Shown: piece after piece, positions 26,384 through 61,880 of the stretch
How the letters are laid out: each line of letters starts with the position of its first letter
How positions within the stretch are numbered: position 1 is the first letter of the stretch
Assembly (NCBI GenBank): GCA_963805975.1
Contig: CAWDVR010000002.1
Location: 64,001 to 128,000, forward strand
Direction: 5' to 3'
Length of the DNA: 64,000 bases
From: an uncultured Acidobacteriota bacterium
Lineage (GTDB): Bacteria > Acidobacteriota > Thermoanaerobaculia > Multivoradales > SZUA-115
Made by a program: the position numbers and the translations under genes
Notes under the pieces: generated by a model
The model's database searches: none
What the model was told of the DNA's origin: nothing
What the model saw: the letters and a program-made list of their open reading frames with translations, nothing else

Positions 26384-26478
26384 TTTCTTCTATGAGGTTC
26401 GCCTCGATTGGCTCCTCACTGCATGCCCTGCGCATGCCTAGGATGGCGAGTCGAGGCGCTGTCTCACGGGAGAAAAGC

Positions 26479-27714
26479 ATGCGGATCAAACTCAGCCGAG
26501 CGACCCTCGATAGCGCCAAGCCAGGCGCCCAGCGCTATCTGCTGCGCGACACCCGGACGGTGGGCCTGGCTCTCAAGATCGAACCGTCCGGCACCCGTAC
26601 CTTCGTCTTCGAGTACCGGCTCCAGGGTAAGCCGTCCCAGCGCTACAACATCGGCCGTTATGGTCAGCCGTGGACCCTGGATCAGGCACGGGCCGAGGCG
26701 GGCCGGCTGCGGTCGTTGGTGGACCGTGGTTTGGATCCCCTGGCCGTCCGTCAGCGGGAAGCCTCGTCAGGCCGGAGCCTGACGGAGCTGGCCGCTCTGG
26801 TCATGGCCCAACTCGAAAGGTCCGGGCGCCGCCCTGGGACCCTCTACATCTACCGCCGGATGTTGCGGCTGTTCATCCTTCCCCGGTTCGGCAGGCTTCG
26901 TGTTGAAGATCTCAGTGTCGAGCACGTCGAGCGGATGCACGCAGAGCTAGAACGCACTCCTGTCCAGGCCAATCATGCGCTCGTGGTGCTCGGCCGTTGC
27001 CTGACGATTGCCGAGCGCTGGGGATGGATTCCCCGCGGGTCGAACCCGGTGCGGTGGGTGGAGCGCTATCCGGGGCGGCGGCGTGGGGACAAGAAGGGCG
27101 TGATGTTGACGCCCGAGCAGATGGCGCGGCTCCTGGCGGCGTTCGACGAAGAGGAGCAGAGCGGCGGTGATCCGCTCGCTGTTGCCGCTCTTCGGATCGC
27201 CTTCTGGACGGGCTGGAGAACGAAGAGCGAGGTTCTCCGGCTTCAGTGGTCTGACCTCGACCTCGACCGCAGCCAGGCCCGGTTGGTCGGCACCAAGACG
27301 GCAGACCAGGAGTACAGGGTGCTTCCGGACGAAGCGGCAGCGGTGCTCCGATCGCTTCCGCGGGTCGAGGGGAGCCCCTGGGTGTTCCCCAGCCAGGACC
27401 CGATGCGGCATCGCAGGACTCTACGCCGGGTGTGGTATCGAGCGCGACAGAGAGCCGGGCTCGTGGACCTCGAAGAGCTGGGGTGCTTTCGCCTCCACGA
27501 CCTACGGCACAACATGGTGAGTTGGGACGTCTCTCGAGGCACGAGCTTGAAGATGGCCGGTGCGAGTGTGGGCCACAAGAACCAGAGATCCACCGAGGTC
27601 TATGCGCACTTTCTGCCTTCTCATTTGCTGGCTTCCACCAACGCCCGATCGCAAGCCATGCGCGAGGCTCTGGAAGCGGCCCAGCAGGCGGCTTCAGGCC
27701 CGGAGGAGATGTAG
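26479..27714 (+). CDS. Tyrosine recombinase/integrase with an N-terminal arm-binding domain
   Basis: Arm domain (LRD..GLALKI..GTRTFVFEYR..IGRYG..TLDQAR); catalytic residues TGWR, TKT, HDLRH, GH, Y all present. Confidence 0.92.
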   Translation: MRIKLSRATLDSAKPGAQRYLLRDTRTVGLALKIEPSGTRTFVFEYRLQGKPSQRYNIGRYGQPWTLDQARAEAGRLRSLVDRGLDPLAVRQREASSGRSLTELAALVMAQLERSGRRPGTLYIYRRMLRLFILPRFGRLRVEDLSVEHVERMHAELERTPVQANHALVVLGRCLTIAERWGWIPRGSNPVRWVERYPGRRRGDKKGVMLTPEQMARLLAAFDEEEQSGGDPLAVAALRIAFWTGWRTKSEVLRLQWSDLDLDRSQARLVGTKTADQEYRVLPDEAAAVLRSLPRVEGSPWVFPSQDPMRHRRTLRRVWYRARQRAGLVDLEELGCFRLHDLRHNMVSWDVSRGTSLKMAGASVGHKNQRSTEVYAHFLPSHLLASTNARSQAMREALEAAQQAASGPEEM

Positions 27715-29000: not shown

Positions 29001-31595
29001 TCACTCGGCCGCTTTCGGGAGCGTCTTGAAAGTCAGCCGTTCGAGCGACCAGGTCACGGGCAAGTCCAAGGGTTCGACGCCGCGGCTTGACGAGCCGGTC
29101 TGCGAGAGCAGCTCCTCGAGCAACGTGGTGCCGCGCGGGCCACGCGATCGGACTCCCGGAAACTGCACCACCCAGGGGTTGGGTATGGGTTCCTCGGTGC
29201 TGAGCAGGAAGTAGGTATCAGTGCCGAAAGGCTCACGGATTCGGAATATGTCCCGGGCTCCGACCTGAATCTCGTTGGGCCACCGGCCCGAGGGGGCGGT
29301 AACGATGGGGAAGCGATTCTCGACGCTGCCGAGCGCACCGCGCGGGAACAGCAGGACGCTGTTACCAAAGCTGTCGATGCTGAAGAAATAGAGATAGCGC
29401 GGAGCTCTGGCATAGGCGAGTGCTTGGGCATCGCTTTGCAGCACCAGTCCCAGCTTCTGGCCGGCATAGAGCTCGCCGTCACGGTGAATCTGGCCTGATT
29501 CTCCGCGCAGTGCAAAACGGTAAGGAAACTCGCTGCCCAACGGGGACTCGAGGGTCAGCCAGGCTCGGATCTTGGCGATGCGCAGCGCACTTTCGGTCAG
29601 CGTCTCCGCGCAGTTTTCGTTTTTTTCGTCGCACCAGTTGCTGCGCAGGGGAAGCGCAACCAGCTCCGGATCGGTCGCGCTCGCCTCCGGTCGGAGCCAG
29701 GCGAAGCTCATCTGACCCGCCACCAGGCGACCGACCAACAGATAGTGCGCGTCCGCCGGGTCCGAGACCCGTTCGACAGCGTCGTGCTGGCTGCCCTGCC
29801 CCAGATCGAGATGGCGCGCGAGGTCCGACGAAGAAGGCACGTTGACGAACAGGATTGGCTCTTTCGTTCCTGCCTGGAGCCGCCGCAGGATGTCCTTGCT
29901 CGCGGGCGTCGCGCCCAACGATTCGGGCACCCCGGCAGGATGGGTGAGCCACCATCCATCCTGCTTGCGGTACAGGACGTGCGTGGGCGTGCTCTCGGTC
30001 GGGTCCGTCACCCAGCGCACACCGCTCTTCTCGCTCAAATCGCAGAGCTGCCGAATCCAGGCCATTTGCTGGCTCCAGCTCGGGCCGGCTTCGGGAACCC
30101 ATACCTTCAAGGTGGGCTCGTTGGCAATGACCCAACGCGAGATGGCGACCAGCTCGCCCGCCGCAACCGGCTGCGGAGAGCGTCGCACGGACCTCGTGGC
30201 GACCACCCGCGCCTCGGCCGAAACCGGCCCCAAGACGCGAACCACGCGCAATCGCACGAGCTCCTCGTGGGGCGAAGAGCTCTGGAGATCGAGCTCCACG
30301 CCTTCGCGCAGACCGTGAATCCATCCCCCCTCCAGGATGACCGTGCCATCGGCGGAGGTTTTTTGAACCGCGATCATGCCGACCGACCGGGCCGAAGCCT
30401 GTTCATGGCCGAACAAGGGGCGTCGCTGGCGCTCCAAGGTGCCCGCGAGGACCGGCCGCTGCTGAGTCTCGCTGCCTTGCAGGAGAGCCCAGGCACGTTG
30501 AAACGTGACTTCGGCGCCCTCCCCGGGCAGCCCACGACCGAGCGCACTCAACAGGGCCTGCGAGAAGGCGCCGTGAATCTGTTTTGCCGGGTCTGAGATC
30601 TCGTAGGCCCGTTCGAAGTCCTGGGCCGCCGAGAGAATCAGCGCCCCGCGCTCTTCGGGTTTGCCGCCGGTCGGCGCCGAGTCCACCACACCACGCGTCG
30701 AGGCTGGCAGAAAACGTGGCGTCGCACTGGCCGGAATGCCGCGCGCGATGCTCCCGCTGTGGCAGCTGTCGAACAGGACTGTCAGCTTTGCGCCGGTGTC
30801 CAGGATCTGGTTGAAGAGTCGCGCCAGCTCCTTGTCGCGCAGGTCGTCGGCGCCCAGGTTGGAGTCCGCCGGCACCAGGCTCTCGTCGAGCTTGTCGTCT
30901 TCTTCGGAGGCCCGGTTGGGAACCTGCGACCCGTGGCCAGCATAGAAGAACACCAGCTCGTCGCCGCGCTTGGCAGAAGCCAGGAGGTGCTGCTCCAAGC
31001 CCTCGCGAATGGCCTGCCGCGTCGCAGCGCGATCGGTCAGCAGGAGCACCCCGGCAGCCGGAAAATCGTACTGCCCGATCAGCAGGTCGCGCATCGCTTC
31101 GGCATCGTTCACCGCGCCCCGCAGATTCCGCCAGCGCACTTGCTCTCGCGAGGCGACCGGCAACCCGGAGGTGTAGTCGTTGATGCCGACGATCAACGCC
31201 CGGCGCCTGGGAGCGGATGCGGAACGCCCCTCCGGAGGACGGGGCGCGGGAGCTCCCGTGGCCATGCCGGGCACTGGATCCGGCGTACCGAAAGGCACGG
31301 CACGAGTGCACGAGCGCACCCTCGCCACCGACAGCGCGAGGCCGCGAAGAATGCCGTGCCGCTGCACCGCTTCGCGCGAGTACTCCGAGCACGACGGCCG
31401 ATAACGGCAGCGGACATCTTCAGCCAGCCAAGGCCTGCCCAGCAGCTGATACTTCGCCACCGCCCAGTCGTAGGCTCGAGCCAGCTGCTGGGCCTGGGGT
31501 GGGCGCAGCGCATCGATCACCAAGGCCGTCAAGATCAGCCCGACGGCCAGCAGATAGGGCTCGGGCCTCTTCAGGTATTGCCGCAGTGCGGGCAT
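29001..31595 (-). CDS. YidD-like domain + caspase (peptidase C14) + DUF4384-like domain fusion
   Basis: TM/signal segment, CRYRPSCSEY..AVQRHG..RG...C..DPVP (YidD/haemolytic motif); ALIVGINDY, FYAGHG, FDSCHSG (His/Cys dyad); C-terminal YLYFFSID..LLFP..EPFGTD. Confidence 0.88.
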   Translation of the reverse strand: MPALRQYLKRPEPYLLAVGLILTALVIDALRPPQAQQLARAYDWAVAKYQLLGRPWLAEDVRCRYRPSCSEYSREAVQRHGILRGLALSVARVRSCTRAVPFGTPDPVPGMATGAPAPRPPEGRSASAPRRRALIVGINDYTSGLPVASREQVRWRNLRGAVNDAEAMRDLLIGQYDFPAAGVLLLTDRAATRQAIREGLEQHLLASAKRGDELVFFYAGHGSQVPNRASEEDDKLDESLVPADSNLGADDLRDKELARLFNQILDTGAKLTVLFDSCHSGSIARGIPASATPRFLPASTRGVVDSAPTGGKPEERGALILSAAQDFERAYEISDPAKQIHGAFSQALLSALGRGLPGEGAEVTFQRAWALLQGSETQQRPVLAGTLERQRRPLFGHEQASARSVGMIAVQKTSADGTVILEGGWIHGLREGVELDLQSSSPHEELVRLRVVRVLGPVSAEARVVATRSVRRSPQPVAAGELVAISRWVIANEPTLKVWVPEAGPSWSQQMAWIRQLCDLSEKSGVRWVTDPTESTPTHVLYRKQDGWWLTHPAGVPESLGATPASKDILRRLQAGTKEPILFVNVPSSSDLARHLDLGQGSQHDAVERVSDPADAHYLLVGRLVAGQMSFAWLRPEASATDPELVALPLRSNWCDEKNENCAETLTESALRIAKIRAWLTLESPLGSEFPYRFALRGESGQIHRDGELYAGQKLGLVLQSDAQALAYARAPRYLYFFSIDSFGNSVLLFPRGALGSVENRFPIVTAPSGRWPNEIQVGARDIFRIREPFGTDTYFLLSTEEPIPNPWVVQFPGVRSRGPRGTTLLEELLSQTGSSSRGVEPLDLPVTWSLERLTFKTLPKAAE

Positions 31596-37002: not shown

Positions 37003-39771
37003 TCAGCGAGACAGGACGAAAGCGCCCGCTCCGAGGACAGCATCGACGAGCGAACGCGTGCGGCGGAGCCGGATCAGCTCCTCGCGCTGCACCTCTGCAA
37101 ACGCCCGCCGGGGGTCGGAGGTCGCGAAGAGTCGCGGATAGAAGCGCTCCATGAAGGCGTAGGCATCGGCATCATGGATCCGCCAAAGTGAGAACAGCAG
37201 GTGTTGTGCACCCGCGAGCCGGAAGCCGTGACGAAGCCCCAGTACCCCTTCTCCATTCGGCGCCTCTCCCAGGCCCGTTTCACAGGCCGACAAGACGCAG
37301 AGCCAGGTGCGCGTGAGGTCCAGGCCGGCGATCTCGTCGGCGTTCAGGAAACCGTCGTGGTCCGGCGCGAGGGCTTCTGCACTCTCCGGCTTCTGCTGGG
37401 CGAGGTGGAGGTAGCCCCGCAGCAGGGGAGAGCGAGCGCTGGCCGGCGCCGCCGTGGACGGTAATCGCAGGAAGCTGCCGTGAGTTGCAAAGTGCAGGAC
37501 ACGCGCCGACGGTTGTCGCGCAACCACCTCTTCACGGGCCTGGTCACCAGTCAGCACACGAGCCTGCCAGCCCTGTTGCTTGGCCACGGACGCCACGAAA
37601 CGGGCCTCGCTTTCGGGCAATGCCAGCCGCGCGTCGTTTCTCCCGACGGCCAGCAGCGTCTTCTCGGCTGCCGACACAGCCGGCTGGAGAAGCTGGCGGC
37701 CGGAGGTGATGTACAGGATAGTGAAGTCTTCGGCGACGAAGCGATCATCCTCTCCCGGCAGTGCGGCCCACGGCACGAAGTGTAGCGCTGCGTCCGGGCT
37801 GAGGATGACAGCTTGCGTGCCTTCCGGAAGCGCCGTGGCCAAGGGCTGCCAGAACCGACGATGGAGCCGGCGCAGGGTGGCGAGAAAAGCCTCGGTGTCC
37901 TCACACGGCCCGGAAGCCTCCGAGCCGCGCCCGCGGATCGCCAGGCAATCTCCCAGCCGGGCGATCTGCTCTTCGATCTCGGCTGCGGCTCCCAGCAGAA
38001 TCCAGCGTGGGCTCCGGTTGGCGGAGATGAGCAACGCCCCATAGTGCGGTACCAGCCGGCGGTTGGCATCCAACTGCTCGAAGCGCACCATCTCGATCAA
38101 GACCTGCCGTGGCTCAAGGGCTGCCTGCACGCGCTCGAGGTCGACGTCGAACACCCGCTCGACCACCGGCATGCTCAGCGACTTGGCGAGCGCCGTCTCC
38201 TCCGCTTCGAGCCTGCGCTCCAGGAGCTCGAAGCCGGGGACGTCGACCTTCTTGCCGGTGCCCTCGCCGAGCTTGGCCATGAGCTCCCGCTTGAGGGCGC
38301 GGATGCGGTCCAATCGCTCGCGGTCGCCCGCCTGTGTGCTGCGCCGCGCCAAGGCGCGCTCGTAGAACAACGATGCAGAGACGGCTCCCTTCATCGTCAG
38401 CACGGCGTCGGCGAGCGGACGTGGCTCGCCCAGGTTCGCCAGCAGGTCATACGGGAACGTCTGTTTCCGATAGCTCAAGCGCTGGGCCTCGGAGCCAAAG
38501 CTCAGGATCTGTCCCAGGTGCTTCCGGTCGAGCACCATCGCCGCTTCGGCAAGTTTCCTGGCCTGATCCGAATCGCCACGCTGCTGCGCGATCACGGCCC
38601 GCCCTTTCATCAGGGCCGCCGAGAGCGGGTGCTGTTGCGATCCGTGAGCGGCCCACAGATTCTCGGCACGTAGCAGAAGCTGATCCGCCTCGGCGAGATC
38701 GTTCTCGGCCAGCGCCATCATCGCGAGATTCGACAGCGAGGCCACCAGCTTGGCCGGCGCGGTGCCGGCCTGGGCTTCGAGAATCGCCAGCGCTTCTCCC
38801 AGATGTTGCTTCGCCCGGCCGACATCACCGGCTTCGAGGGCAACCAGCGCGAGGTTTCCCAGCACGGTTGCTCGCTCTTCGCTTTTCGGGTGCGTGAGAT
38901 CGACCGCCTGCAGCAATCTCGCCTCGGCCTCCTGGAATCGCTCGAGGCCACGCAGGGCCTCGCCGAGATCGTTGAACAGAGCGAGCCGAACCTTGGCATC
39001 GGGTGCGGGCGAGCCTGCCAGGAGCTTCTCGTCGATCGCGCGGGCCCGCTCGTGATCGCCCATCGTCAGACGCAGCGCTGCCCAGTTGTGCTGGGTGATC
39101 ACGAGCTCTCTTGTCCGACTTGGCCCGAGCCCCTCGAGCAAGGCGATCGCTTCGAGGTAGGCGGCATCGGCCTGCTCCCAATCTCCCAAATGGGTAGCCG
39201 CGCTGGCCAGGTTCTGCCAGACAATCGCCCGCTCGGCTGCGCGGGATGGCGCGGGCAGAGCTTCTAAGGCGCGGGCGAAGATCTCGGCTGCCGCATCGAT
39301 CTCGCCCCACTGGAGGCGGATCATGCCCATGTTGTTGTAGAGCCAGCCGAGGTCCGGGCGCCCCGCGACCTGTGCTTCGAGGATGCGTCGCGCCTGCTCG
39401 TAGTAGGTCTGGGCACGGTCGAGATCGCCGATGGCGCCGTAGAGCTGTGCCAGAAAACCGAGGCTGCGTCCGACTGCGGCACTGTTCTCACCCTGAAGAG
39501 TGCGTGCTGCCTGCGTGAGCACCTCGAGCGCGGGAATCGCCGCCGCCGCGGATTCGCGGGGCACGGCGGGCAGCCCTGGGATGTTCACAAAGCCGCCGCC
39601 TTCTCCTGCTGCAGCGGCGGGTATGGGCCTGCGGGCTTCGAGTCGCTCGGCCGCTGTGCGGGTAGCCCGGACAGCCCAGATCAACACTCCCGTGCCCAGG
39701 ACTAGCAGAGGCAACAGGCAGCCCAGGCAGAACACCTTGAGCACGCGCCGCAGCCGTATCGCCTTGCTCAT
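37003..39771 (-). CDS. Membrane-anchored TPR-CHAT protease
   Basis: N-terminal TM, TPR repeats (YNNMG, WQNLA, LSNLA), SPDAALHFVPW, HFATHG, LSACETG. Confidence 0.9.
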   Translation of the reverse strand: MSKAIRLRRVLKVFCLGCLLPLLVLGTGVLIWAVRATRTAAERLEARRPIPAAAAGEGGGFVNIPGLPAVPRESAAAAIPALEVLTQAARTLQGENSAAVGRSLGFLAQLYGAIGDLDRAQTYYEQARRILEAQVAGRPDLGWLYNNMGMIRLQWGEIDAAAEIFARALEALPAPSRAAERAIVWQNLASAATHLGDWEQADAAYLEAIALLEGLGPSRTRELVITQHNWAALRLTMGDHERARAIDEKLLAGSPAPDAKVRLALFNDLGEALRGLERFQEAEARLLQAVDLTHPKSEERATVLGNLALVALEAGDVGRAKQHLGEALAILEAQAGTAPAKLVASLSNLAMMALAENDLAEADQLLLRAENLWAAHGSQQHPLSAALMKGRAVIAQQRGDSDQARKLAEAAMVLDRKHLGQILSFGSEAQRLSYRKQTFPYDLLANLGEPRPLADAVLTMKGAVSASLFYERALARRSTQAGDRERLDRIRALKRELMAKLGEGTGKKVDVPGFELLERRLEAEETALAKSLSMPVVERVFDVDLERVQAALEPRQVLIEMVRFEQLDANRRLVPHYGALLISANRSPRWILLGAAAEIEEQIARLGDCLAIRGRGSEASGPCEDTEAFLATLRRLHRRFWQPLATALPEGTQAVILSPDAALHFVPWAALPGEDDRFVAEDFTILYITSGRQLLQPAVSAAEKTLLAVGRNDARLALPESEARFVASVAKQQGWQARVLTGDQAREEVVARQPSARVLHFATHGSFLRLPSTAAPASARSPLLRGYLHLAQQKPESAEALAPDHDGFLNADEIAGLDLTRTWLCVLSACETGLGEAPNGEGVLGLRHGFRLAGAQHLLFSLWRIHDADAYAFMERFYPRLFATSDPRRAFAEVQREELIRLRRTRSLVDAVLGAGAFVLSR

Positions 39772-39832
39772 CCTCGTGCCTTCCACGCTTCCGAAGACAC
39801 GCCAAGAGCACTTTCAGGGGGTGCGGCCGGAC

Positions 39833-40642
39833 CTATGCGGGCGGAATCTCGATCCGGTCGGCGAAGACCTGCGCTTCCGTTCCGGACGAAGAGATACCGA
39901 CGACACGGATCTCGTAGCGCCCCGGGGCCAGCGCCGCCCTGGAAAGGGCCACTGAAAAAGTGGCATCGGGCAGCAGCTTCAGCCCTGACCGGCTCCACAG
40001 AGGCTGCTCTCCCATGCGATCCATCGAGCGCACTTCCAGACGGTAGTCGTCGTAGGGTTGTGGATCCAGAGTCGCCAGCTGGAGAAAGAGCACATCGCCG
40101 CTCCCTTCCAGTCGTCGGGGCGCGACCTCCACGGGTGAGGAGCCACGCGGTGCCAGCGGTGCCAATCGGTGGAATTCGACATTGATCTGAACGCCCGAGG
40201 TCGCGGCCAGGCGCTGCTCAGCCCCCAGTCGCCCGGCCCGCTCCTGATACCCCCAGAGCGCGAGCCCCAGGATCGCCAACAGCGAGGCTGCCAGCAGGGC
40301 GAGAGCGGGAAGACGGCGATCTCGACGGTCCGGCCCACGCTGCCGCGCACCGGACCGGATGCGGCCCTGGATCTTCTTCCAATCCTGCGCCAGCTCCTCG
40401 GGCGATAGATGACCGGGCTCCCCTCGAGTCGCGGCGGGAGGAAAGGCGGCGAATTGGCTCGCCAGCAGCGCAGCTTCCGGATCGAGGGCAATCGCCTCTT
40501 CGACCCGCTCGCGCTCTTCTGCGGCGAGCTCGTCATTGAGGTATGCGAAAATATCTTCGGCACTAACCTTCATTTCGGGTCGCCGGCGCAGCTCGGCGGC
40601 CAAACCCTCGAGAGCGACCGAAAGTTCTTTGTTTCGCTTCAC
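39833..40642 (-). CDS. Putative anti-sigma factor (ASD-like N-terminus, one TM, extracytoplasmic Ig-like domain)
   Basis: Directly downstream of the ECF sigma gene; AYLNDELAAEERERVEE resembles the zf-HC2/ASD helix pair; TM LALLAASLLAILGLALW; LAPGRYEIRV. Confidence 0.75.
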   Translation of the reverse strand: MKRNKELSVALEGLAAELRRRPEMKVSAEDIFAYLNDELAAEERERVEEAIALDPEAALLASQFAAFPPAATRGEPGHLSPEELAQDWKKIQGRIRSGARQRGPDRRDRRLPALALLAASLLAILGLALWGYQERAGRLGAEQRLAATSGVQINVEFHRLAPLAPRGSSPVEVAPRRLEGSGDVLFLQLATLDPQPYDDYRLEVRSMDRMGEQPLWSRSGLKLLPDATFSVALSRAALAPGRYEIRVVGISSSGTEAQVFADRIEIPPA

Positions 40643-40665
40643 GGCGTCTCCTCCCCTTCCTCGGA

Positions 40666-41223
40666 CTAGTCGAGGCGCAGCCGCGTGCCGCTCAGCATCC
40701 GTTTCAGGGTCTTCAGAGCATCATGGCGCAGACTCTTGACCGTCTCGACCGAGATCGCAAGCAGCTCCGCGATCTCTTTGTAGCTGTGATCCTGATTCTG
40801 CAGCAGGATCACGTGTCGCTGACGGGGCGAGAGCTCCTTGATCGCAGTCCGCAGCAGCCCGAGTGCCTCTTCGATCTCCAGCTTCTTGTCGGCCGGCATA
40901 TCCTGACTTAGCAGCTGCCAAGAAATCAGCATTTCGCCCGGCAAGCTCGATTCCGCATCGATTGCAACCCTCTGACCACTACGCATCTTGGCTCTCCGGT
41001 AGCGAATCTCGTTGGACCAGACGCCGTGGATGATCGTAAAGAGCCATGTCTTCTCGGAAGATTCGTCGCGGAACGTGCCACGGTATTGATAGACACGTAC
41101 AAAAACATCTTGTGCTAGATCGCGAGCCTCGTCCTTGGAGCAGCCGCGGGCGACAAAGAAAGCCACGACGCGCGGATACCACGCCGCATAGAAGCGTTCG
41201 AACCACTGGTCATCTCTGTTCAC
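40666..41223 (-). CDS. ECF RNA polymerase sigma factor
   Basis: Region 2 (ARDLAQDVFVRVY, TWLFTI) and region 4 (LSPRQR, SYKEIAELLAISVETVKS); 185 aa. Confidence 0.93.
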   Translation of the reverse strand: MNRDDQWFERFYAAWYPRVVAFFVARGCSKDEARDLAQDVFVRVYQYRGTFRDESSEKTWLFTIIHGVWSNEIRYRRAKMRSGQRVAIDAESSLPGEMLISWQLLSQDMPADKKLEIEEALGLLRTAIKELSPRQRHVILLQNQDHSYKEIAELLAISVETVKSLRHDALKTLKRMLSGTRLRLD

Positions 41224-44677: not shown

Positions 44678-45763
44678 ATGGACTTCATTCTGCGGATCTA
44701 CTTCATCGGCCTGATCGCCTTCGTCCCCGATTCGGACGGACAACGCATGACGGCACTGCTGGTCGATGCACGCCACAGCTACATCGCCTCGGACGGCGAG
44801 CAGGTGCCGGAGCATTACCCCATGCTCTTCGCGCGGGCGCAGAACTGCTCCGGCAACTGCCACGAGCAAGACACTTTTCTGGCTGACACCGTGTTTCCTT
44901 CGACCCTGTCGGCAGGCGAGCGCCTGACCAACCTGCAAGATGCCGTGATCGGGGGCGGTGGCTGGAAGCTCGACCTCTCGCAGCTGCGGATCGTCCTTCC
45001 GGGCGCTTCGCAGATGTCTTTGACGCCTTTCCAGCTGGTCGGTGATGGCGATACGGTAGCGGGTCCCGGCCGGCCTCTGCCCAGCAGCTCGACTCCACGA
45101 GACGATTTCGACTACGTGGCCGACCTTCGTGAGATCGTGGGCGAAAGCCTGGTCGTCGATTCGACGCTGCTCGACGCGCCCGAGAAAGGGCGTACCGTCG
45201 CCCTGATGAAGCTGGCGGCGGGTGACGTGACAGCACAGCGTCTGTCGGGCTTCAAGGACGAGATCGTCGAGTTCCGCTTCGCCACCGCCGAGGAGCTCAA
45301 GAATGGTCTCGATCTCTCGATGCCACTCGCAGCCTTGGCGGATCGCGTGATGGTCGAGATCAAGATCTCGGGCGACCGGGTCCGGCTCGAAGACCGCAAC
45401 AGTACGACCTCCACCGTCCGCACGATGGAGCTCACCCCTCAAGCCGGCAGTAATGTGATCGAGGTCGTCATCGTCAATCTGCCGAAGCACGGCTTCCAGT
45501 TCGAGGGCTCCCATCTCGGCCACCCTACGACTCCCGGGCAGATCTTTATCGATCATCACTTCGAGCTGTTCTACGAGCTGGCAGAGTGCGTTCCACCGCG
45601 CAACCGCCGACCGGTTCCGGGCTATCTCAACGACTTACGCACTGAACGACCGAACGACCCGTCCCAAGACAGCTCGACATTCCTGGGCGCGTTGGGCCTA
45701 GCGCCGAGCCGAGGCGTGTGGAGCCAACCCACGTGCGTGGTGGTCCAGCTTCCGCGCGGCTGA
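44678..45763 (+). CDS. Hypothetical beta-rich protein coupled to the CHAT gene
   Basis: Starts 3 nt after the CHAT stop with SD GGAGGAG; FIGLIAFVP, HHFELFYEL, C-terminal SRG..PTC. Confidence 0.8.
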   Translation: MDFILRIYFIGLIAFVPDSDGQRMTALLVDARHSYIASDGEQVPEHYPMLFARAQNCSGNCHEQDTFLADTVFPSTLSAGERLTNLQDAVIGGGGWKLDLSQLRIVLPGASQMSLTPFQLVGDGDTVAGPGRPLPSSSTPRDDFDYVADLREIVGESLVVDSTLLDAPEKGRTVALMKLAAGDVTAQRLSGFKDEIVEFRFATAEELKNGLDLSMPLAALADRVMVEIKISGDRVRLEDRNSTTSTVRTMELTPQAGSNVIEVVIVNLPKHGFQFEGSHLGHPTTPGQIFIDHHFELFYELAECVPPRNRRPVPGYLNDLRTERPNDPSQDSSTFLGALGLAPSRGVWSQPTCVVVQLPRG

Positions 45764-46413: not shown

Positions 46414-47811
46414 ATGGTTCGGACAGCTCTGCTATTGCTTCTCGCCTTTTTCACCAGCCCACTGACCGCCGCTCCGAGAGTGGCGTTACAGATTTTCGAT
46501 GTTGGCGCTTTGAGCACCTGGACGACGCTCACGGCAGAAGAGACGACCCCCTACCTCGCCGAGGGTTTGCGCTCGGATTTCCGCTTTGGTGCCCGATCGA
46601 CAGCGGGTAGCTATGCTTTCGTGACTCAAATCGACAACACCCTCGATCGAGATGCGCTCGGCCCCGAGGACATCCAGGGCCTCTTTTCCGTCGACACCTA
46701 TCAGGATCTCGAGCCCAGCGGCTTCACTAGTGAGGTCGTCACCGTCGGAGAGAAACACAACTTGTCGGCCCTGGTGGTATCTTTTCGCACTACCAAGCTT
46801 GGTTACGTGGTCAGCGCCCCCCCCGGCCCGGTGCTGGTAAAAACGGTATTTCTCCCTCTCGTACTGCGAGATGCGAGCACTCGGCAGTACCTCAACTGGA
46901 TCTACGTCGCCAACTTTCGCGGCAGCACGGCACAGCAGGGCGACTTGCAGGCTTTCGACCGGCTCTGGCAGCAGGCAAAACTCGGCGATCCAGGTCTCTC
47001 GCAGGTCGAGCTGGATCGATTCAATGCGCTCCGGCCCGAAATCGCGACAGTTGAGCCGGTCAGCACCTTGCCGCTCGCCCCCCTTCCCGAGCCGCAAGGC
47101 GCCGCGCCGGGAGCACCGGCTAGCGAGCCTCTGGCGCAGGCTCTCGTTGGCGCGCTTACTCCAGGTTCCAAGGTCTTAGCGCCTGGGCCGCTGCGACGCT
47201 TCACCAGCGAATACCCAGACACGGCCCTGGCAAAAGTCTTCCAGTCGCTCGCGCAGGCTCAACTCTCGGTTCTCCAAGAGGCCATCTGGCAGCAAGCCTG
47301 GCAGGCTTCTCCGAGCGCTCAGAAGGCCTTGCTTGCGGCACTGTTTCTGGTGCAGAGCATCTCCGTGGAGGACGAACGGTTAGTGGCGCGCGTGTCCCAG
47401 GACGCTGCGATGGCAGGGATCTCGGCGGGAAAGCTCGATTGCGAGCAGCTCGGTTTCCTGCTGGATCTTCTCTTGCCTCAGCGCAACCATCGCTTTCTGG
47501 CCCGGCCGGCAGTGCGGCAATTCTTCGCCTTGGCTCCCGACCGCGGCTGCGGTGATCTGGTTCAGCTCATGCACGCGAGAGAGATCGATCTTGTCCAGCT
47601 GCACGAGGTCGCCCGCGAGAAGCACCCGGGAACCTGGGAGCTCAAATCGACGTTCCCCTCCGGGCGCCTACCGACCCTGGCGCAACAGGAGGGCAACCTG
47701 ATGCTCGTTCAGTTCCCGGTCGGTCGAAAAGACCGGGCGATCGACGTCCGGGGCGTGACCAGCTTGCTCGATCTGATCGCTGCGCTCGCTCGCCAAGGTG
47801 CAAGCTCTTAG
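46414..47811 (+). CDS. Secreted hypothetical protein
   Basis: SD GGGAGG, signal peptide MVRTALLLLLAFFTSPLTA; 465-aa ORF with no competing gene. Confidence 0.7.
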   Translation: MVRTALLLLLAFFTSPLTAAPRVALQIFDVGALSTWTTLTAEETTPYLAEGLRSDFRFGARSTAGSYAFVTQIDNTLDRDALGPEDIQGLFSVDTYQDLEPSGFTSEVVTVGEKHNLSALVVSFRTTKLGYVVSAPPGPVLVKTVFLPLVLRDASTRQYLNWIYVANFRGSTAQQGDLQAFDRLWQQAKLGDPGLSQVELDRFNALRPEIATVEPVSTLPLAPLPEPQGAAPGAPASEPLAQALVGALTPGSKVLAPGPLRRFTSEYPDTALAKVFQSLAQAQLSVLQEAIWQQAWQASPSAQKALLAALFLVQSISVEDERLVARVSQDAAMAGISAGKLDCEQLGFLLDLLLPQRNHRFLARPAVRQFFALAPDRGCGDLVQLMHAREIDLVQLHEVAREKHPGTWELKSTFPSGRLPTLAQQEGNLMLVQFPVGRKDRAIDVRGVTSLLDLIAALARQGASS

Positions 47812-53798: not shown

Positions 53799-56493
53799 CG
53801 CGCGCAGATCCTCGGAGACTCGCCCGGTGGCTCTTGGTTTCGATCCATCGTGCTTGCGGATCTCCGGCGAGGGTGTAGCCCGCCCAATAGAAAGGCGCGG
53901 CGAAGCGTTCCTGGGCGAGCAGCGACAGCTGCGCTCCGCGAAGCGCCTCCGCCACCGGCGCGCCCGCTTTCAGGCGGCGATAGAAAGCGGTCATGAGCTC
54001 CGCAGAAGCAACATCGTCAACGCTCCAGAGGGTCGAGATCACGCCCGGACTGCCGGCGTAGAGGAAGGCGCGTGTCAGGCCCACGATCTCGTCACCGCCG
54101 CTGTGCTCACCCAAAGCTGTTTCACAGGCGGAGAGGACAACCAGGTTGACGCCCGTCAGGTCGAGCTCGGAGTAGATCTCGTGTACCTCCAGGTTGCCGT
54201 CGTCTTTGCCGTCCCTGGAAGGAGAAAGTGCCAGGCGGCTGAACCCCGCGCTCCGCGGAAAGTAGAGGCCGTGCGCCGCGACATGGACGATGTCGACCTC
54301 GCCCTCCAGCTCTTTGAGCGCCGACTCGCTGGCGGCCATGCCGAGCAAGGGTTCGGTGCCCAGAAGCTCTGCCACCTCCTCGGCCTCGCGGCGGCTTCCC
54401 GCCAGCGGCGGCAACTCGGGGTCGGCAGGGATGGGCTCTCCGAGCACCAAGGCGCGGCCGGTGAATGGAGACTCCTTGTGGCGGAGGTACTGGAGAACGC
54501 TGGCGCTCGGGGCGTAGGTGAGCGTGAAGTCCTCGATCAGATAGCGGCCGGTGGCCGGATCCCGCAGCGCGGCGAAGGGAACGTAGTGCAGGACGCCGTG
54601 GGGAATGAGGATCAGCTTGGAGCTGTGCAGATGAGGCCGTAGCGGTGCAATGAGCTGTTGATAAAGACCCTCCGCATTCTGGTCCGCGGTGCTGCAGCCG
54701 GCGAGCGGCTCGCTGCCTCGAACGCTGTGCCTCACCGCGTCGGAGAAGCACAGCGGAGTGGAGACTTCGCCCTCGAACGGCGGCAGAGAGAACCAGCTGA
54801 AGGTGTCACGGTCGATCACCCAGGCATGGATGCGGAAATCCGTGACGAAGAAGCTGATCAGGGTGACACCCGGCTCGAGCGCGGCCTGCACTTGGGCCGC
54901 TTCCACAGGATGGGCCTTGACCACGGAGGCGAGCTCTGGGTCCAGGGCCACGGTTCGAGCACGCAGGCCTTCGTGGAGCTGGCGCAACTGGAGCAGCGTC
55001 GACTCCATGGCCCGTCGTTCGTCACCGATCGCCAAGGCCATCTGCCGCTCGGTTACAACGATGCGTGCGGCGAGCTGGTCCAGGTCCCGAGAGAATGAGC
55101 TCGCGTGGGAGCGTTGCTGCACGGGACGGGTGTTGCCCAGCGCCTGGAGCAGGGCTCGGGCCTTGGCCAGCTCGGCGACGGCGAAAGCCTCCCTCGTGCG
55201 CAGCTCCAGGCTCAACATCTCGAGCAGCGCGTGGTAGAAGAGACGCGTGACCCCACCACGGTAGGCCTGAATCGATTCCTGCCGCTGATTCAAGTCTCCA
55301 GCCACCTCGAAGCAGGCGACGGCGGAGGCCGCGCGCTCGATCGCTTCGTCGAACCGACCCTGCAGCCAAAGAGCAGCGCTCAGGCCGGAGAGGTGAATCC
55401 CGGCGAGCTGCGCGTCGCCCACTCGGAGCTCTTCCGCCAGCGCGATCTCCCAGGCCCGAATGGCTCCTGTACGGTCGCCCAGATGGTAGAGGATGGGAGC
55501 CCAAATCCCGGTGCGCCATGCCTTCGTGCGGTGGAACTGGCCCAGGCCGACCGCCAGCGTTTGGTCGCCGTTGGCGCAACGGCTCGCGCCTGGAATTCCT
55601 CCTGCGCTTTGCCGCAGAGTACCCGGCGCAGCTTGGGGGCCTTGTCGTTGCAACGAGCGATGGATTCCAGCAAAGTCCATCCTGAGCTTCTGCTTCTCGC
55701 CGAGCCATATCTGAAACGAGCCCAGCTTGCGGATGGCCTCGGCCGTCGTCGTTGCAAAAGGCAGATGATGCTCGTCGAGCATGCGCTCGAGCTCCCTGGC
55801 CGCACTCGAGCTGCCCCTTCCTGGGCCGAGCATGCTGTAGACAGAGGGCAGGAGCGTCGTCGCGGTCCATTCGGTCAGCGTGGCTATCAGCTGTTCGAGC
55901 AGGGCGCTCTGAGGCTCCCTGGCCAACATTCGTGATTGTTCGAGGTAGGCAATACCTTCCTCGTATCGCCCGTCCAAGGCCAGAATAAGACCCCGTTGGG
56001 CTTGCGCCACCGCGGTCATGGCTCGGTTGTTGCTACGCTCGGCAGCGGACATAATTTCTTCGTTGGTTTCGAGCGCGGCGTCAGGATATCCGAAGGCCAG
56101 TAGCAGCCTGGAGCGATGCATGAGAACGCTGGGGTAGGCCCAGGGGTGGAACGAGAGGCGGGCGAAGAGCAAGGCACGGTCGTTCTTCTCCAGGGCCGCG
56201 CTCGGGTTGCCGCGCATGGTTTCGAGCTCGGCGCTCCAGAGCAGCCGCGTCGTCTCCATCATGCTCAGGAAACGGTACCCGTATGCAGACTCCGCAGGGA
56301 TCACCAGCTCTTCGTCAGCGCCGTGATGCCATAGGCCGCGCATCGCCAGTCTGACGGACGCCGCCATCAGGGCGAGCTGCGCCAATGTCGCGCCGACGAG
56401 CAGTCCCGACAGCAAGACCTGGCGTAGCGGGTGGCTCCGTGGGCGGACGCTGCCGAGAGCTTTCGGCTCCTCGCTTCGAGGTCCCACTCTCAC
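53776..56493 (-). CDS. Membrane-anchored TPR-like-CHAT protease (paralogue of 51240-53798)
   Basis: N-terminal TM, IPHGVLHYVPF, HVAAHG, LSACET, PFYWAGY. Confidence 0.9.
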   Translation of the reverse strand: MRVGPRSEEPKALGSVRPRSHPLRQVLLSGLLVGATLAQLALMAASVRLAMRGLWHHGADEELVIPAESAYGYRFLSMMETTRLLWSAELETMRGNPSAALEKNDRALLFARLSFHPWAYPSVLMHRSRLLLAFGYPDAALETNEEIMSAAERSNNRAMTAVAQAQRGLILALDGRYEEGIAYLEQSRMLAREPQSALLEQLIATLTEWTATTLLPSVYSMLGPGRGSSSAARELERMLDEHHLPFATTTAEAIRKLGSFQIWLGEKQKLRMDFAGIHRSLQRQGPQAAPGTLRQSAGGIPGASRCANGDQTLAVGLGQFHRTKAWRTGIWAPILYHLGDRTGAIRAWEIALAEELRVGDAQLAGIHLSGLSAALWLQGRFDEAIERAASAVACFEVAGDLNQRQESIQAYRGGVTRLFYHALLEMLSLELRTREAFAVAELAKARALLQALGNTRPVQQRSHASSFSRDLDQLAARIVVTERQMALAIGDERRAMESTLLQLRQLHEGLRARTVALDPELASVVKAHPVEAAQVQAALEPGVTLISFFVTDFRIHAWVIDRDTFSWFSLPPFEGEVSTPLCFSDAVRHSVRGSEPLAGCSTADQNAEGLYQQLIAPLRPHLHSSKLILIPHGVLHYVPFAALRDPATGRYLIEDFTLTYAPSASVLQYLRHKESPFTGRALVLGEPIPADPELPPLAGSRREAEEVAELLGTEPLLGMAASESALKELEGEVDIVHVAAHGLYFPRSAGFSRLALSPSRDGKDDGNLEVHEIYSELDLTGVNLVVLSACETALGEHSGGDEIVGLTRAFLYAGSPGVISTLWSVDDVASAELMTAFYRRLKAGAPVAEALRGAQLSLLAQERFAAPFYWAGYTLAGDPQARWIETKSHRASLRGSARDDHTPLE

Positions 56494-57194
56494 CCCACGT
56501 ACAGCGGCTGCTCGCGGCTGCTCTGGAAGCGGCCGAGGCGATCCTCGAACAGCGCTTCGATGGAGTAGGTGCCCGAGGGGGCCTTGGCCGGTATCGTGAC
56601 TTCCGAGCGCGTCTCGACGATGCCGCCGCCGCGCGGCACCACGAAGCTGTCGGGCCCGAGGGCATTCATGTACTGGCCGCCGTATTTGATGCCCGTGAAG
56701 GCTTCGATCTTGAGGTCTTCCTCGCGGTTCGGCCCGATCACCAGGTAGCGCACGTAGACCTTGGCCGTGCCGCCGGGTGCGACCCGGGCCGGCTCGAAGC
56801 GCACCTCCTCGACCGCGAGGATGTAGCCCTGGGAAGAGTCGTAGCTCAGGCGGGCCATGGCCTCGTCACGGCTGCCGTAGAGCATGTCCTGCCGGCGCCC
56901 GATGAGATATCCGGCGACCCCGCCGACCACGGCACCGGCGACCGCGCCCTTGACCGGGTCGTGCCCGAGAATGCGCGCCCGCAAGAGGCCACCGGCTGCC
57001 CCGAGCACCGCACCGGTGATGGCGGCCTTCTTCCGGCGCGGCTGCTGCCGCAGCCACGACTTGAGGGGATGGCTGGGCGCGCCGCTGGTTGCGCCCACCG
57101 TGCGGGGAACGCTGCCGCCGCCCGCAAGCGGCGAAGAGGCGCAGCCGGAGAGCTGGAGAGCACAAAGCAGGAGAGCGGTGATCCATTTCTTCAT
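56490..57194 (-). CDS. Glycine-zipper lipoprotein
   Basis: Lipobox LSGC; GAVLGAAGG and GAVAGAVVGGVAGY zipper; C-terminal Ig-like domain. Confidence 0.82.
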   Translation of the reverse strand: MKKWITALLLCALQLSGCASSPLAGGGSVPRTVGATSGAPSHPLKSWLRQQPRRKKAAITGAVLGAAGGLLRARILGHDPVKGAVAGAVVGGVAGYLIGRRQDMLYGSRDEAMARLSYDSSQGYILAVEEVRFEPARVAPGGTAKVYVRYLVIGPNREEDLKIEAFTGIKYGGQYMNALGPDSFVVPRGGGIVETRSEVTIPAKAPSGTYSIEALFEDRLGRFQSSREQPLYVG

Positions 57195-57208
57195 GGGAAA
57201 CCTCGCTT

Positions 57209-58888
57209 TCAACGGTCGTCGTCATCGTCACGGTCGATTTCGGTCTGCTTCTTGCGCCGGGGATTGAGCAAGGTCGCATCGGTCTTGCTGCCGGCGCCCT
57301 GCCAGAGCTGTTTCATTCCCTCCTCCGCCGTGGCCACGAGCTCGCGCGCCCGCGCGGCGACGTCTGCGGGAGCCCCGGCCTCGGCGGCGAGTCGTTGCGC
57401 GAGCTGCTTGGCTTCGGGGTAGCTCGCGGCGGAGAGCAGCGCGTCGATCTCCGTCAGCCGGCGCTCCCAGGCTTGGCGCTCGGCCTGGGCTGCCGCCTGA
57501 GCCACCGACTGGGCATGCTGGGCGGCGGTGCGGCGCTCGATCTCTTGCTCGGTGATGCGGTTGCTGAGGAGCGACAGCGTGGCCATCTCGTCCACCAGGT
57601 CGGTGCGGTGCTGGTACGAGCGGTTCAACAGCTCCTGCACCTTCTGCCGGGCTTCCTCGAGCCGGCCTTCGTCACACCAGCGCTCCGCCTGGGCCGTACC
57701 CGCTGCGAGCTCGGCACGCAAACGCACCAGCGCTTGCTCGCGGATCGCCTGCGTCGGATCGGGACGAGGCGGCTCGCGATCGCGCCGCACGGGCGGCGGT
57801 GGCGGCTCGGGATGGGGTGCAGCGGGTGCCTGGATCGGTGCCGGGGGAGGTTCGACGATCACGTACTGGTTTGAGATGGTCGGCGATGGCGGATCTCGCT
57901 GCTGCCACCCGTCGAGCAGCTTCCCGAGTAGCGTCAGGGTCGTCAGGGCCAGGATGACGGCCCCCCAGACCGTCCGCGCTCTTCTAGGGCGGACATTCGG
58001 CTGCCCCCTGTCCCCGACCCGGTTGCCGGCGCTGCGCGCGTGCTCTCTCGGCAGCGCCGCCGGCTCGACAGCATGGAGCGCACGCTCGAACGCCGCGGCG
58101 CTCGAGAAACGCTCGCGCGGCTCCTTGCGCAGCGCCTTCGACAGAGCTGCGCAGACCACCGAGCTGGCGGCGAGCGTGCTCAGAACTTGTTCCGCCGGCC
58201 GCTCCAGATGCAGGCGCTGGATCTCGTAGTCGCTCTTGCCGTCGAACGGCGGCCGGCCCGCCAGCAGCTCGAAGAGCAGCACGCCGGCGCTGTAGATGTC
58301 GCTGCGATGGTCCAGGCTCTGCGGGCTCTTGATCTGCTCCGGGGACATGTAGACCGGGGTACCCACGGTCTGTGAGGTCTTGGTACGCCGCTCCTCGCCC
58401 ACCCGTAGCGCAATGCCGAAGTCGGTGAGCTTCGCCACTCCGGTGGCGCTCACCAGCACGTTGCCGGGCTTGACGTCCCGGTGGATGATGCCTTGCGAGT
58501 GCGCGTAGTCGAGGGCCGAGAGCACCTGCCCCAGGATGCGCAGTGCCTGGTCTTCCGGCAGGCCCCGGCCGCCCCGCTCCCGCAGCAGCTCCTCGAGACT
58601 GCGGCTGCCGAACAGCTCCATCACCAGGTACGCGACGCCCGCGACCTCGAGCACGTCGTGGACGGCGACGATGTGCGGATGCTGGAGCCGCGCCTGCGCC
58701 CGGGCTTCGGCGGCGAAGCGCTCGCGCAGCTCGCCGTCGCGGGTCAGCTCGAAAGGCAGAGCCTTGATCGCCACCTCGCGATGCAGCCGGTCGTCCACCG
58801 CGCGGTAGACGACTCCCATGCCGCCGCGGCCCAGCAGGCCGAGCACCCGGTAGGGGCCCAGCAGCGCGGGCAGAGGTGCGGGTGCCAT
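57209..58888 (-). CDS. Hanks-type Ser/Thr protein kinase with a TM and an extracytoplasmic helical domain
   Basis: GRGGMG, VAIK, HRDVKPGN, DFG, GTPVYMSPEQ, SDIYS; alternative TTG start at 58894. Confidence 0.95.
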   Translation of the reverse strand: MAPAPLPALLGPYRVLGLLGRGGMGVVYRAVDDRLHREVAIKALPFELTRDGELRERFAAEARAQARLQHPHIVAVHDVLEVAGVAYLVMELFGSRSLEELLRERGGRGLPEDQALRILGQVLSALDYAHSQGIIHRDVKPGNVLVSATGVAKLTDFGIALRVGEERRTKTSQTVGTPVYMSPEQIKSPQSLDHRSDIYSAGVLLFELLAGRPPFDGKSDYEIQRLHLERPAEQVLSTLAASSVVCAALSKALRKEPRERFSSAAAFERALHAVEPAALPREHARSAGNRVGDRGQPNVRPRRARTVWGAVILALTTLTLLGKLLDGWQQRDPPSPTISNQYVIVEPPPAPIQAPAAPHPEPPPPPVRRDREPPRPDPTQAIREQALVRLRAELAAGTAQAERWCDEGRLEEARQKVQELLNRSYQHRTDLVDEMATLSLLSNRITEQEIERRTAAQHAQSVAQAAAQAERQAWERRLTEIDALLSAASYPEAKQLAQRLAAEAGAPADVAARARELVATAEEGMKQLWQGAGSKTDATLLNPRRKKQTEIDRDDDDDR

Positions 58889-58890
58889 CG

Positions 58891-60252
58891 TCAAGGCTCC
58901 GCCGGCACCGGTGCGGGAGAGGACACGCCCGCACGGGCCAGAAAGCTCCGGATGGCACCCAAGGCGACCGCCTCGACGGTGCCGGCTCCATAGTCTTTCG
59001 TCGCCACCGATCGACCGGCCAGCGAGATCGTCCTCGCCGCCGCCAACCGGCTGCGCGTGAGGCCCACCAGCTCGCCACGCCGGTTGACCACCGGGCCACC
59101 CCCGCCGGCCACGGCAAAGGAGCGGTCGAGGGTCATTCCTACGGGCTGGCCGCCGGCATCCCGATCGAGGCGTGCCACGAAGGCCTTGATGAAGAGCGGG
59201 TCCGCCAGCGGGCCCGCGCGGGTGCCTGTCGGGCGCATGCCGGCGGCGCTCAGCAGAGGCTCGGCAACGGTCGATGGATACAGCAGGAGGCCCACGTCCT
59301 GCGCCACTTCGAGCGGCTCGCCGGCCGCCGCGACGGCAAGCGGGGTCGTCAGGCGCAACGGGATCTGCAGCAGCGCCAGATCGGCGTTGCTGGCGAGGGC
59401 ATAGACCGTGGCGGGAACCGGCTCCTGGCCCGGGAGCTGCACGGAGAGCGTATCGATGGCGGCCTTGAGCTTGCCGGAACCGGTGAGATCTTCCAGGGGA
59501 TGGCCGATGGCTTCACGCCAGGGTCGCGCCAGGTGAGCCGACGTCAGCACCAGGGTGGGCGCAATCAGCACGCCCGAGCCCCAGGCGGTCCCATTCTGGA
59601 TCGAGCCCGAGCCCGGCGTGACGAGGCTGTAGCGGCTCTCCACGCGTGCCACGGCGGCGCGAGCACGCCCTTCCACCTCCGTCCAGGCCGGTGCCGCGCC
59701 GCGCCCGAGTGACTGCACGCTCGCTCTCTGCGCTGTGCGCTCGGAAGCCCAGAAGCCGATCAGGCCGAGCGCACCGAGCAGCAGGAGCAGCCCGGTCGAG
59801 CCGGCGAGCAACGCTCGGTGCCGCGCTCGACGCCGGCGCGCCTGGTCGTCGTCGCTCAGGGCACCGCGCAGCTCCGCGCGCAGGGTCTCGCGACCGATCG
59901 CCGGCTTGGCGGCAACCTCGCCGGACATCAGCAGCACGCGCAGCTCCGGGCCACCGGCGGCAAGGCGAATGCGTGAGCCCTCCGGCACCGCCAGGCGCTC
60001 GAGAGGCGGGCACTTGGCTCCGTTCAAGAAGGTGCCGTTCGAGCTTTGCTGGTCTTCGAGCCAGAGCCGGCCTTGCTGGTAGAGCAAGCGCGCATGGAGC
60101 CCGCTCACCAGATCGTCCGCGAGGTCGTGAAACTTCACGTCGCAAGTGGCATTGCGGCCCAGCGTGAGGCTCTGCCCCTCGGCGAGCTTGAGTCGTTGAC
60201 TGTGGCTGGCGAGGGATCCGGATTGATGCCGGAGTTCGATCTCGACACTCAC
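58891..60252 (-). CDS. FHA-TM-trypsin-like domain protein (catalytic Ser apparently absent)
   Basis: FHA (LGR, VSGLHA, SSNGTFLNG), TM, GSGVLI..LTSAH, DLALL, GGGGP in place of GxSGGP; GTG start overlaps the upstream stop. Confidence 0.85.
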   Translation of the reverse strand: MSVEIELRHQSGSLASHSQRLKLAEGQSLTLGRNATCDVKFHDLADDLVSGLHARLLYQQGRLWLEDQQSSNGTFLNGAKCPPLERLAVPEGSRIRLAAGGPELRVLLMSGEVAAKPAIGRETLRAELRGALSDDDQARRRRARHRALLAGSTGLLLLLGALGLIGFWASERTAQRASVQSLGRGAAPAWTEVEGRARAAVARVESRYSLVTPGSGSIQNGTAWGSGVLIAPTLVLTSAHLARPWREAIGHPLEDLTGSGKLKAAIDTLSVQLPGQEPVPATVYALASNADLALLQIPLRLTTPLAVAAAGEPLEVAQDVGLLLYPSTVAEPLLSAAGMRPTGTRAGPLADPLFIKAFVARLDRDAGGQPVGMTLDRSFAVAGGGGPVVNRRGELVGLTRSRLAAARTISLAGRSVATKDYGAGTVEAVALGAIRSFLARAGVSSPAPVPAEP

Positions 60253-61840: not shown

Positions 61841-61880
61841 GGTGGTGTTCTCGCCCCCTAGAGACACCAACGGACACACC

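Follow-up and report, generated by a model that had tools for sequence, protein, structure and literature searches.

Canonical YidD, the membrane-protein insertion efficiency factor of E. coli, is a small stand-alone protein without a membrane-spanning helix, located peripherally at the cytoplasmic face of the membrane. The subject of this work is a gene in which a YidD-like domain is joined in frame to a caspase (peptidase family C14). It lies in a 64,000-nucleotide stretch of DNA, hereafter the window, from an uncultured Acidobacteriota bacterium of the class Thermoanaerobaculia, order Multivoradales (GCA_963805975.1, contig CAWDVR010000002.1, positions 64,001 to 128,000). As described in several reviews, YidD helps YidC and sits in the rpmH-rnpA-yidD-yidC cluster (PMC3573977, PMC8082313, PMC10502375, PMC6822775). 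According to a survey of caspases in prokaryotes, a helix N-terminal to the domain is common and may be a signal peptide; the main text of this survey, as far as available, mentions neither YidD nor "haemolytic" (PMC3501461). Among the metacaspases, TbMCA2 has two aspartates that belong to the S1 pocket and four that belong to the Ca site (PMC4357240), and a Ca-independent metacaspase has also been described (PMC10235996). In Myxococcus, the DdvA/DdvS system ties a periplasmic CHAT protease domain to the control of a sigma factor of the extracytoplasmic function (ECF) type (PMC11506125). YidD is unmentioned in the available parts of that paper and of the report on the Haliangium CHAT/caspase cascade (10.1101/2023.06.23.546230).

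Full-text literature searches, with subscription papers and supplements outside their reach, turned up no description of a YidD-caspase architecture, in line with the initial annotation of the window, which knew of none. Among the entries listed, the same searches gave no description of a helix-bearing YidD paralog; they gave no match for Thermoanaerobaculia caspases, and the main text of PMC11237479 contains no YidD, PLDc or DUF2752. The reading that we hold to be probable is that the helix of a YidD paralog replaced a caspase's signal peptide and tethers a metacaspase-like protease at the periplasmic side of the inner membrane, the YidD core being kept for a partner protein.

The fused gene

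The minus-strand frame is open throughout, from the first ATG at 31637 to 29001, with zero stop codons. In the Pfam scan, PF01809 (YidD; 54.1 bits, cut-off 27, E 1.3e-14) and PF00656 (Peptidase_C14; 78.8 bits, cut-off 21.4) both match within the single predicted protein, which is also over the TIGR00278 cut-off (49.7 bits vs 40). The in-frame fusion of a YidD-like domain and a caspase proposed by the initial annotation was thereby borne out. All of the motifs it had quoted are present (the helix, CRYRPSCSEY, AVQRHG, DPVP, the Pro/Ala linker and an internal ATG at 31265), and the caspase active site is intact, with His221 and Cys278 in the numbering of the 864-amino-acid (aa) product. The end of the feature had been set wrongly at about 30600: the C14 domain ends near 30435, and about 480 residues continue from there to 29001. 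The fusion is real and rare.

Translation likely starts at ATG 31595, because this codon is aligned with the starts of stand-alone homologues and has the better anti-Shine-Dalgarno pairing (-5.9 kcal/mol, against -3.9 for ATG 31637, with an assumed anti-Shine-Dalgarno string). The internal ATG at 31265 had been put forward as the possible start of a separate gene. The codon exists, but its pairing of -3.3 kcal/mol, the weakest among five starts tested, speaks against such a role.

The caspase part and its relatives

Among 7988 candidates, 446 caspase relatives were found at E<=1e-30, those with names being mostly Thermoanaerobaculia. PF01809 occurs in the fused protein alone among the 120 relatives listed of these 446. 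The closest group is made up of uncharacterised C14 + DUF4384-like caspases, exported proteins from Thermoanaerobaculia and from other bacteria (P0005-P0123), which are 36-66% identical over nearly the whole 741-aa protease part and have an invariant dyad and S1 residues. They begin with their own signal-like or lipoprotein-like N-termini, whereas the fused protein begins with the YidD paralog. A precomputed DUF4384 label is carried by 15 of the 119 other relatives listed, and in six relatives scanned DUF4384 falls in the last domain, below cut-off in every one; the Pfam scan gave no DUF4384 match in the fused protein. On another contig of the genome, four further C14 matches lie within 36 kb (G000:C3:705-35731); the first of these is a paralog of the protease part (46% identity) that has a signal-like N-terminus of its own.

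A hydrophobic stretch, defined as a 12-mer with a mean Kyte-Doolittle value of at least 2.0 within 70 codons before the domain, precedes the C14 domain in 52 of 59 caspase-relative loci, some of them near-duplicate rows; five of the other seven fall under the hydrophobicity mark and two have too little frame. None of the 59 loci has a YidD core near the caspase, and no match to YidD or to the partner gene described below was found at 43 metagenome loci of caspase relatives. In the fused gene, the native signal peptide of the caspase is absent from the DNA, and the paralog helix is the only hydrophobic segment of the protein. A related locus in another family of the same order, G028 (one of the 52), keeps this helix without the YidD core. 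Since relatives have signal peptides at this place and the fused protein has none, and since G028 keeps the helix alone, the helix likely replaced the signal peptide. The initial annotation had suggested a membrane tether or sensor; the role of the helix as a tether is supported, as a deduction from these comparisons, and the sensor half found no support.

Residues D164, H221, D276 and C278 are invariant across all 103 aligned rows. The closest sequence and fold matches of the C14 part are metacaspases (clan CD, family C14B; Yca1, TbMCA2, AtMC4/9, Geobacter GSU0716), with which it shares the fold, the His-Cys dyad and two Asp at the positions of basic P1 specificity; D164 and D276 align with the ND and DSC of Yca1/AtMC4. 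Cleavage after Arg/Lys is predicted. Unlike metacaspases, the family of the fused protease is exported, has a long C-terminal extension and appears to have replaced two of the four Ca-binding Asp: D237 and D254 are kept, and Lys255 (101/103) and Arg285 (103/103) appear at what we take, partly by assumption, to be the other two positions in TbMCA2 numbering. The protease is probably Ca-independent. Its 741-aa part is conserved throughout and gave a model with a mean pLDDT (predicted local distance difference test) of 89.2; a fold search with this model returned caspase-clan chains only and nothing for the C-terminal domains. The EACC1-associated caspase model (NF047832) was also considered and rejected, its 50.5 bits lying below the cut-off of 140.

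The YidD paralog family and the two-gene cassette

The host genome (5.36 Mb, 6 contigs, 96% complete) contains three YidD genes: a canonical, a stand-alone helix-type and the fused one. The initial annotation had assumed that an ordinary rnpA/yidC-linked YidD was repurposed. This proved wrong: the canonical gene is intact between rnpA and yidC in an rpmH-rnpA-yidD-yidC operon on contig C5, and the fused domain comes from a separate helix-bearing paralog family. The fused domain keeps the C-R-Y/F-x-P-S/T-C-S-x-Y motif and third Cys of canonical YidD. It differs in carrying a genuine hydrophobic helix at its N-terminus, together with a D-x-x-R-x-P-x-x-Q motif, in lying away from rnpA/yidC and in a separate clade, in its predicted outward orientation, and in being joined to a protease in a product of 864 aa.

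A YidD match was found in 61 of 61 related genomes searched, 57 of which have at least two YidD-like genes. The 28 best relative loci examined (L006-L033) encode a stand-alone helix-bearing YidD, with a DUF4870-like gene as neighbour at 22 and a DUF2752 gene at 14. This second YidD behind DUF4870-like/DUF2752 membrane-protein genes is widespread in the order; the host's own copy (108 aa, N-terminal helix; L002:1498-2619, G000:C5) lies downstream of such genes. The fused YidD belongs to a different clade with good support (11 rows, 100/99), in which the members come after a PLDc_N/zinc-ribbon gene. It has the features of the class defined in this analysis as the cassette type of helix-anchored YidD paralog: the basic N-terminus, the helix, D28/R31/Q36, a start overlapping the zinc-ribbon partner gene and membership of the same clade. 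The structure model of the paralog has a pLDDT of 95.8, and among solved structures no Foldseek match was found at E<=0.001 (best VIA Z 4.3) and no sequence match, which does not prove a new fold. Among 145 paralog representatives (P0132-P0281), 31 overrun the usual end by more than 25 residues, the added sequences being unrelated, so that the helix-type family appears to lose its stop codon easily. The family is apparently undescribed so far, and is likely to face the periplasm.

Partner and paralog genes most often overlap, the zinc-ribbon end encoding the first residues of the paralog in another frame. Among 22 partner-gene loci, 19 carry the YidD paralog as a gene of its own and have no caspase next to it (in one of them, L097, the paralog is cut by a stop), G322 lacks the paralog, and the remaining two are the window and G028; this count covers the closer PLDc_N relatives, with the more distant L083-L089 kept apart, and G218 (locus L153) was excluded from the locus analyses. 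The cassette likely moves as a unit, because its neighbours vary from genome to genome; carriers include Planctomycetota and Bacteroidota-group records. Mean identity of the partner is highest in the window (68%), lowest in G028 (46%), 57% in G322 and 54-68% in the others, and the divergence in the core-less G028 fits a YidD core and partner that work together. At another locus, L142 (G592:C408), the cassette has its paralog as a separate gene and is flanked by a TPR-CHAT gene and a gene for a divergent caspase, apparently a second, unfused landing in a CHAT/caspase cluster.

Membrane topology

Of 79 aligned rows 73 were scored, and 72 of these have a more positive net charge ahead of the helix than behind it (means over the scored rows +2.7 and -0.3); N-in/C-out is therefore predicted. 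Two proteins, P0126 and P0127, are single-chain fusions of helix-YidD and PLDc_N/zinc-ribbon in which the YidD core precedes the first helix of the partner and no further helix intervenes; at the position matching this junction, the partner encoded as a separate protein carries a signal-like N-terminus. Because of the charge bias and these fusions, the YidD core would lie outside the cytoplasm, which is consistent with an exported caspase. Since P0126 and P0127 fall in the general helix-type clade and not in the cassette type, the YidD/partner pairing seems to have arisen more than once. Another protein, P0261 (227 aa), has two YidD domains with a hydrophobic segment between them, which could place them on opposite sides of the membrane.

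Origin of the fusion

The gene order at G028 is TPR-CHAT, partner, caspase. Its TPR-CHAT protein is 50% identical to that of the window (37003-39786) and its caspase 57%. The caspase frame starts at the same partner-gene overlap and consists of the paralog helix, a linker of 40 residues and C14; the YidD core is missing. Residues 9-29 of G028 score 18.7 in register against six stand-alone paralogs, exceeding the best placement in 117 control N-termini (top 15.0) and 10,000 shuffles; the eight residues constrained by the partner overlap are omitted from this test. In a quick tree of 64 rows, the caspases of the window, G028 and P0005 form a clade (SH-like approximate likelihood ratio test, SH-aLRT, 100); its sister group is four caspases that have native signal-like N-termini. 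The comparison shows two states of one locus. As order, overlap, helix and caspase clade are shared, we infer that the cassette stood before this caspase in the common ancestor of both loci. The helix-only form suggests that the protease likely does not need the YidD core.

The fusion may have arisen as follows. The cassette is found in many unrelated neighbourhoods; one copy would have come to lie directly upstream of a caspase that was exported and stood in a CHAT/ECF cluster, at a time before the window and G028 loci split. A deletion would then have taken the YidD stop codon together with the caspase's own start and signal peptide. The product is predicted to be translated by coupling to the partner gene and to insert N-in/C-out as an Arg/Lys-cutting cysteine protease, probably independent of Ca. 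By analogy only, a neighbouring exported CHAT protease might cleave and activate the fusion, in a cascade that would end at the membrane anti-sigma factor.

No second full fusion was found. Searched against proteins of 475-1512 aa, residues 1-125 gave one match among 1588 candidates, the fused protein itself. An 18-sequence profile gave nine matches among 7996 candidates of 199-2000 aa, with C14 only in the fused protein. The best 150 of 10,676 representatives are all of at most 284 aa and include no fusion, although the fused protein itself is not among them and clustering at 50% can hide fusions. The cassette profile matched in 8 of 401 genomes of the phylum, the seven besides this one in frames of 113-163 codons.

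Alternative explanations

The YidD core could instead be a working sensor or docking module which, with its partner, senses envelope damage or redox through its three Cys and the CxxC-type motif and activates or clusters the caspase. The core is in good order: of the positions that at least 75% of 66 rows conserve, it retains all 35, and its 142.8 bits place it sixth of 15 and within the 129.8-155.9 of the 14 stand-alone copies, on a profile of 52 representatives that is biased in its favour, having been gathered with a profile that included the fused sequence. The partner is well conserved at the window, and P0126 and P0127 carry paralog and partner as one protein. An intact core is equally expected, however, if it merely serves the partner; the sister caspase in G028 does without it, PF01809 was seen in none of the 119 other caspase relatives listed, and no second fusion appeared among the 1588 and 7996 candidates or the best 150 representatives. 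We regard the sensor role as unlikely. More doubtful still is a wider version, in which helix-YidD and PLDc_N/zinc-ribbon form an undescribed periplasm-facing sensor of envelope damage or redox that is wired here to a caspase, membrane stress firing an extracytoplasmic CHAT/caspase cascade that controls the ECF sigma factor. The fusion might also be a near-neutral accident whose working products are a long-tailed YidD paralog and/or a cytoplasmic caspase restarted at ATG 31265. Tails are tolerated in this family (31 of 145 representatives), the P0005 call begins immediately ahead of C14 and includes no signal, and the full fusion is a singleton. This explanation is nonetheless improbable, given the weak ribosome-site pairing at ATG 31265, a native signal peptide that is gone from the DNA and not merely read through, a protease part conserved over all 741 aa and folding at a mean pLDDT of 89, and a sister locus at 57% identity that also keeps the helix in frame.

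An assembly error hiding a stop or a frame change between two genes is very unlikely. The six contigs suggest a long-read assembly, and the full fusion was seen once. A public contig of 246 bases, however, matches 31038-31275 with 0 differences and 0 gaps. It runs across the linker and across the codon following DPVP, at which most separate homologues end, DPVP itself being conserved and in frame right up to the upstream edge of the match. The other two reading frames at the junction contain no signal peptide or good start, and G028 independently shows the same kind of join. The initial annotation had wanted the reads near 31200-31280 checked for a lost stop, and the contig partly supports the open junction: it crosses the critical codon unchanged, reaching only 7 bases beyond it. 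No RNA data set holding the sequence was listed. Several observations weigh against the preferred reading, the replacement of the signal peptide by the paralog helix with the core kept for the partner. The read support for the junction is thin, as the short contig has a depth of 2.5 and may derive from the window's own source. The fused core is somewhat fast-evolving, with a distance ratio to partner of 1.85 (second-highest of 15, range 1.22-2.12) and the longest end branch of its 9-row clade, and its full intactness also fits selection for a role inside the fusion. The order inside the window/G028/P0005 clade is weak (support 40 for window + G028), and P0005, the closest caspase (66%), is called without helix or signal peptide. 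Neither the window linker nor that of G028 matches native linkers, the YidD core or the other above shuffles (p 0.15-0.94); one fusion followed by loss of the core and two deletions are both compatible with the data. The full fusion is seen in one genome only and the helix-only form in one, and the topology is deduced from charge bias and natural fusions.

Gene neighbourhood

The fused gene belongs to a cluster that includes an ECF sigma factor, a membrane anti-sigma-like gene, several TPR-CHAT and C14 genes, a kinase, FHA and PP2C (Table 1). The products of the CHAT and caspase genes nearby likewise have hydrophobic N-termini, and their dyad motifs are intact.

Table 1. Positions of the fused gene, its parts and the adjoining genes in the window
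Feature	Position	Strand	Remarks
Whole fused gene	29001..31595	-	864 aa; 878 aa if from the weaker upstream ATG at 31637
Basic N-terminus and sole hydrophobic helix (about 12-30; also given as 11-29), residues 1-30	31506..31595	-	predicted N-in/C-out signal anchor; native to the YidD-paralog family
YidD core, residues 31-109	31269..31505	-	PF01809/TIGR00278; D28-R31-Q36, C63, C69, C96, terminal DPVP; intact
Pro/Ala linker, residues 110-130	31206..31268	-	contains the internal ATG at 31265; without signal peptide
C14 metacaspase-type domain	30435..31208	-	His221 (30933-30935), Cys278 (30762-30764), acidic S1 residues D164 and D276
C-terminal domains, about 480 aa	29004..30434	-	conserved, confidently folded; last one DUF4384-like in relatives, no Pfam match in the fused protein
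Cassette partner gene, 129 aa	31571..31960	-	signal-like N-terminus, CxxC-type motif, PLDc_N membrane helices, zinc ribbon; overlaps the fusion start by 25 bases
TPR + CHAT + C14 + weak DUF4384, 1640 aa	32056..36978	-	signal-like N-terminus; dyad motifs present
TPR-CHAT	37003..39786	-	50% identical to the gene upstream of the G028 cassette
Transmembrane anti-sigma-like gene (weak zf-HC2) and ECF sigma factor	39833..41223	-	head the same gene run as the fusion

A tyrosine integrase (26392-27714) adjoins a stretch of about 30 kb of lower GC (26392-56000) with five CHAT and three C14 genes. GC of the cluster is 0.64-0.68 vs 0.70 +/- 0.025, and this stretch is likely a genomic island; no convincing attachment-site repeat was found for it, and no tRNA in the window. 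Two plus-strand genes downstream of a CHAT gene, 44678-45763 (361 aa) and 46414-47811 (465 aa), have no Pfam or PADLOC match. On the minus strand at 56490-61879, genes for PP2C, zinc-ribbon+FHA, FHA+trypsin-like, Ser/Thr kinase and glycine-zipper proteins lead to two CHAT genes and a C-terminal caspase.

PADLOC returned its generic caspase model only. Like the SAVED-CHAT/PCaspase cascade of Haliangium (10.1101/2023.06.23.546230), the cluster unites in a single region CHAT proteases and a C14 caspase with a sigma factor and a kinase; a SAVED domain was found in none of the genes scanned between 26392 and 61879, which do not comprise every frame. In DdvA a zinc anti-sigma domain, a helix and a periplasmic TPR-CHAT are combined in one chain, whereas the anti-sigma-like protein here is small (269 aa), has no CHAT and is encoded separately from the CHAT proteins. 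The cluster may thus resemble the Haliangium and Myxococcus systems in the way it works and is a member of neither.

Biological meaning

On the preferred reading, the fusion is a lineage-restricted replacement of a signal peptide by gene capture. It would serve as a natural topology reporter and, together with the two YidD+PLDc_N fusions, indicates that a widespread second YidD lies on the periplasmic side and has small membrane proteins, not YidC, as its working partners. If this is true, the poorly known YidD fold could be tested apart from membrane-protein insertion. The locus also points to an exported, probably Ca-independent, metacaspase-like family in CHAT/ECF clusters, with no solved or assayed member in the libraries searched. 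The apparently undescribed YidD paralog family may be a more useful lead than the fusion itself.

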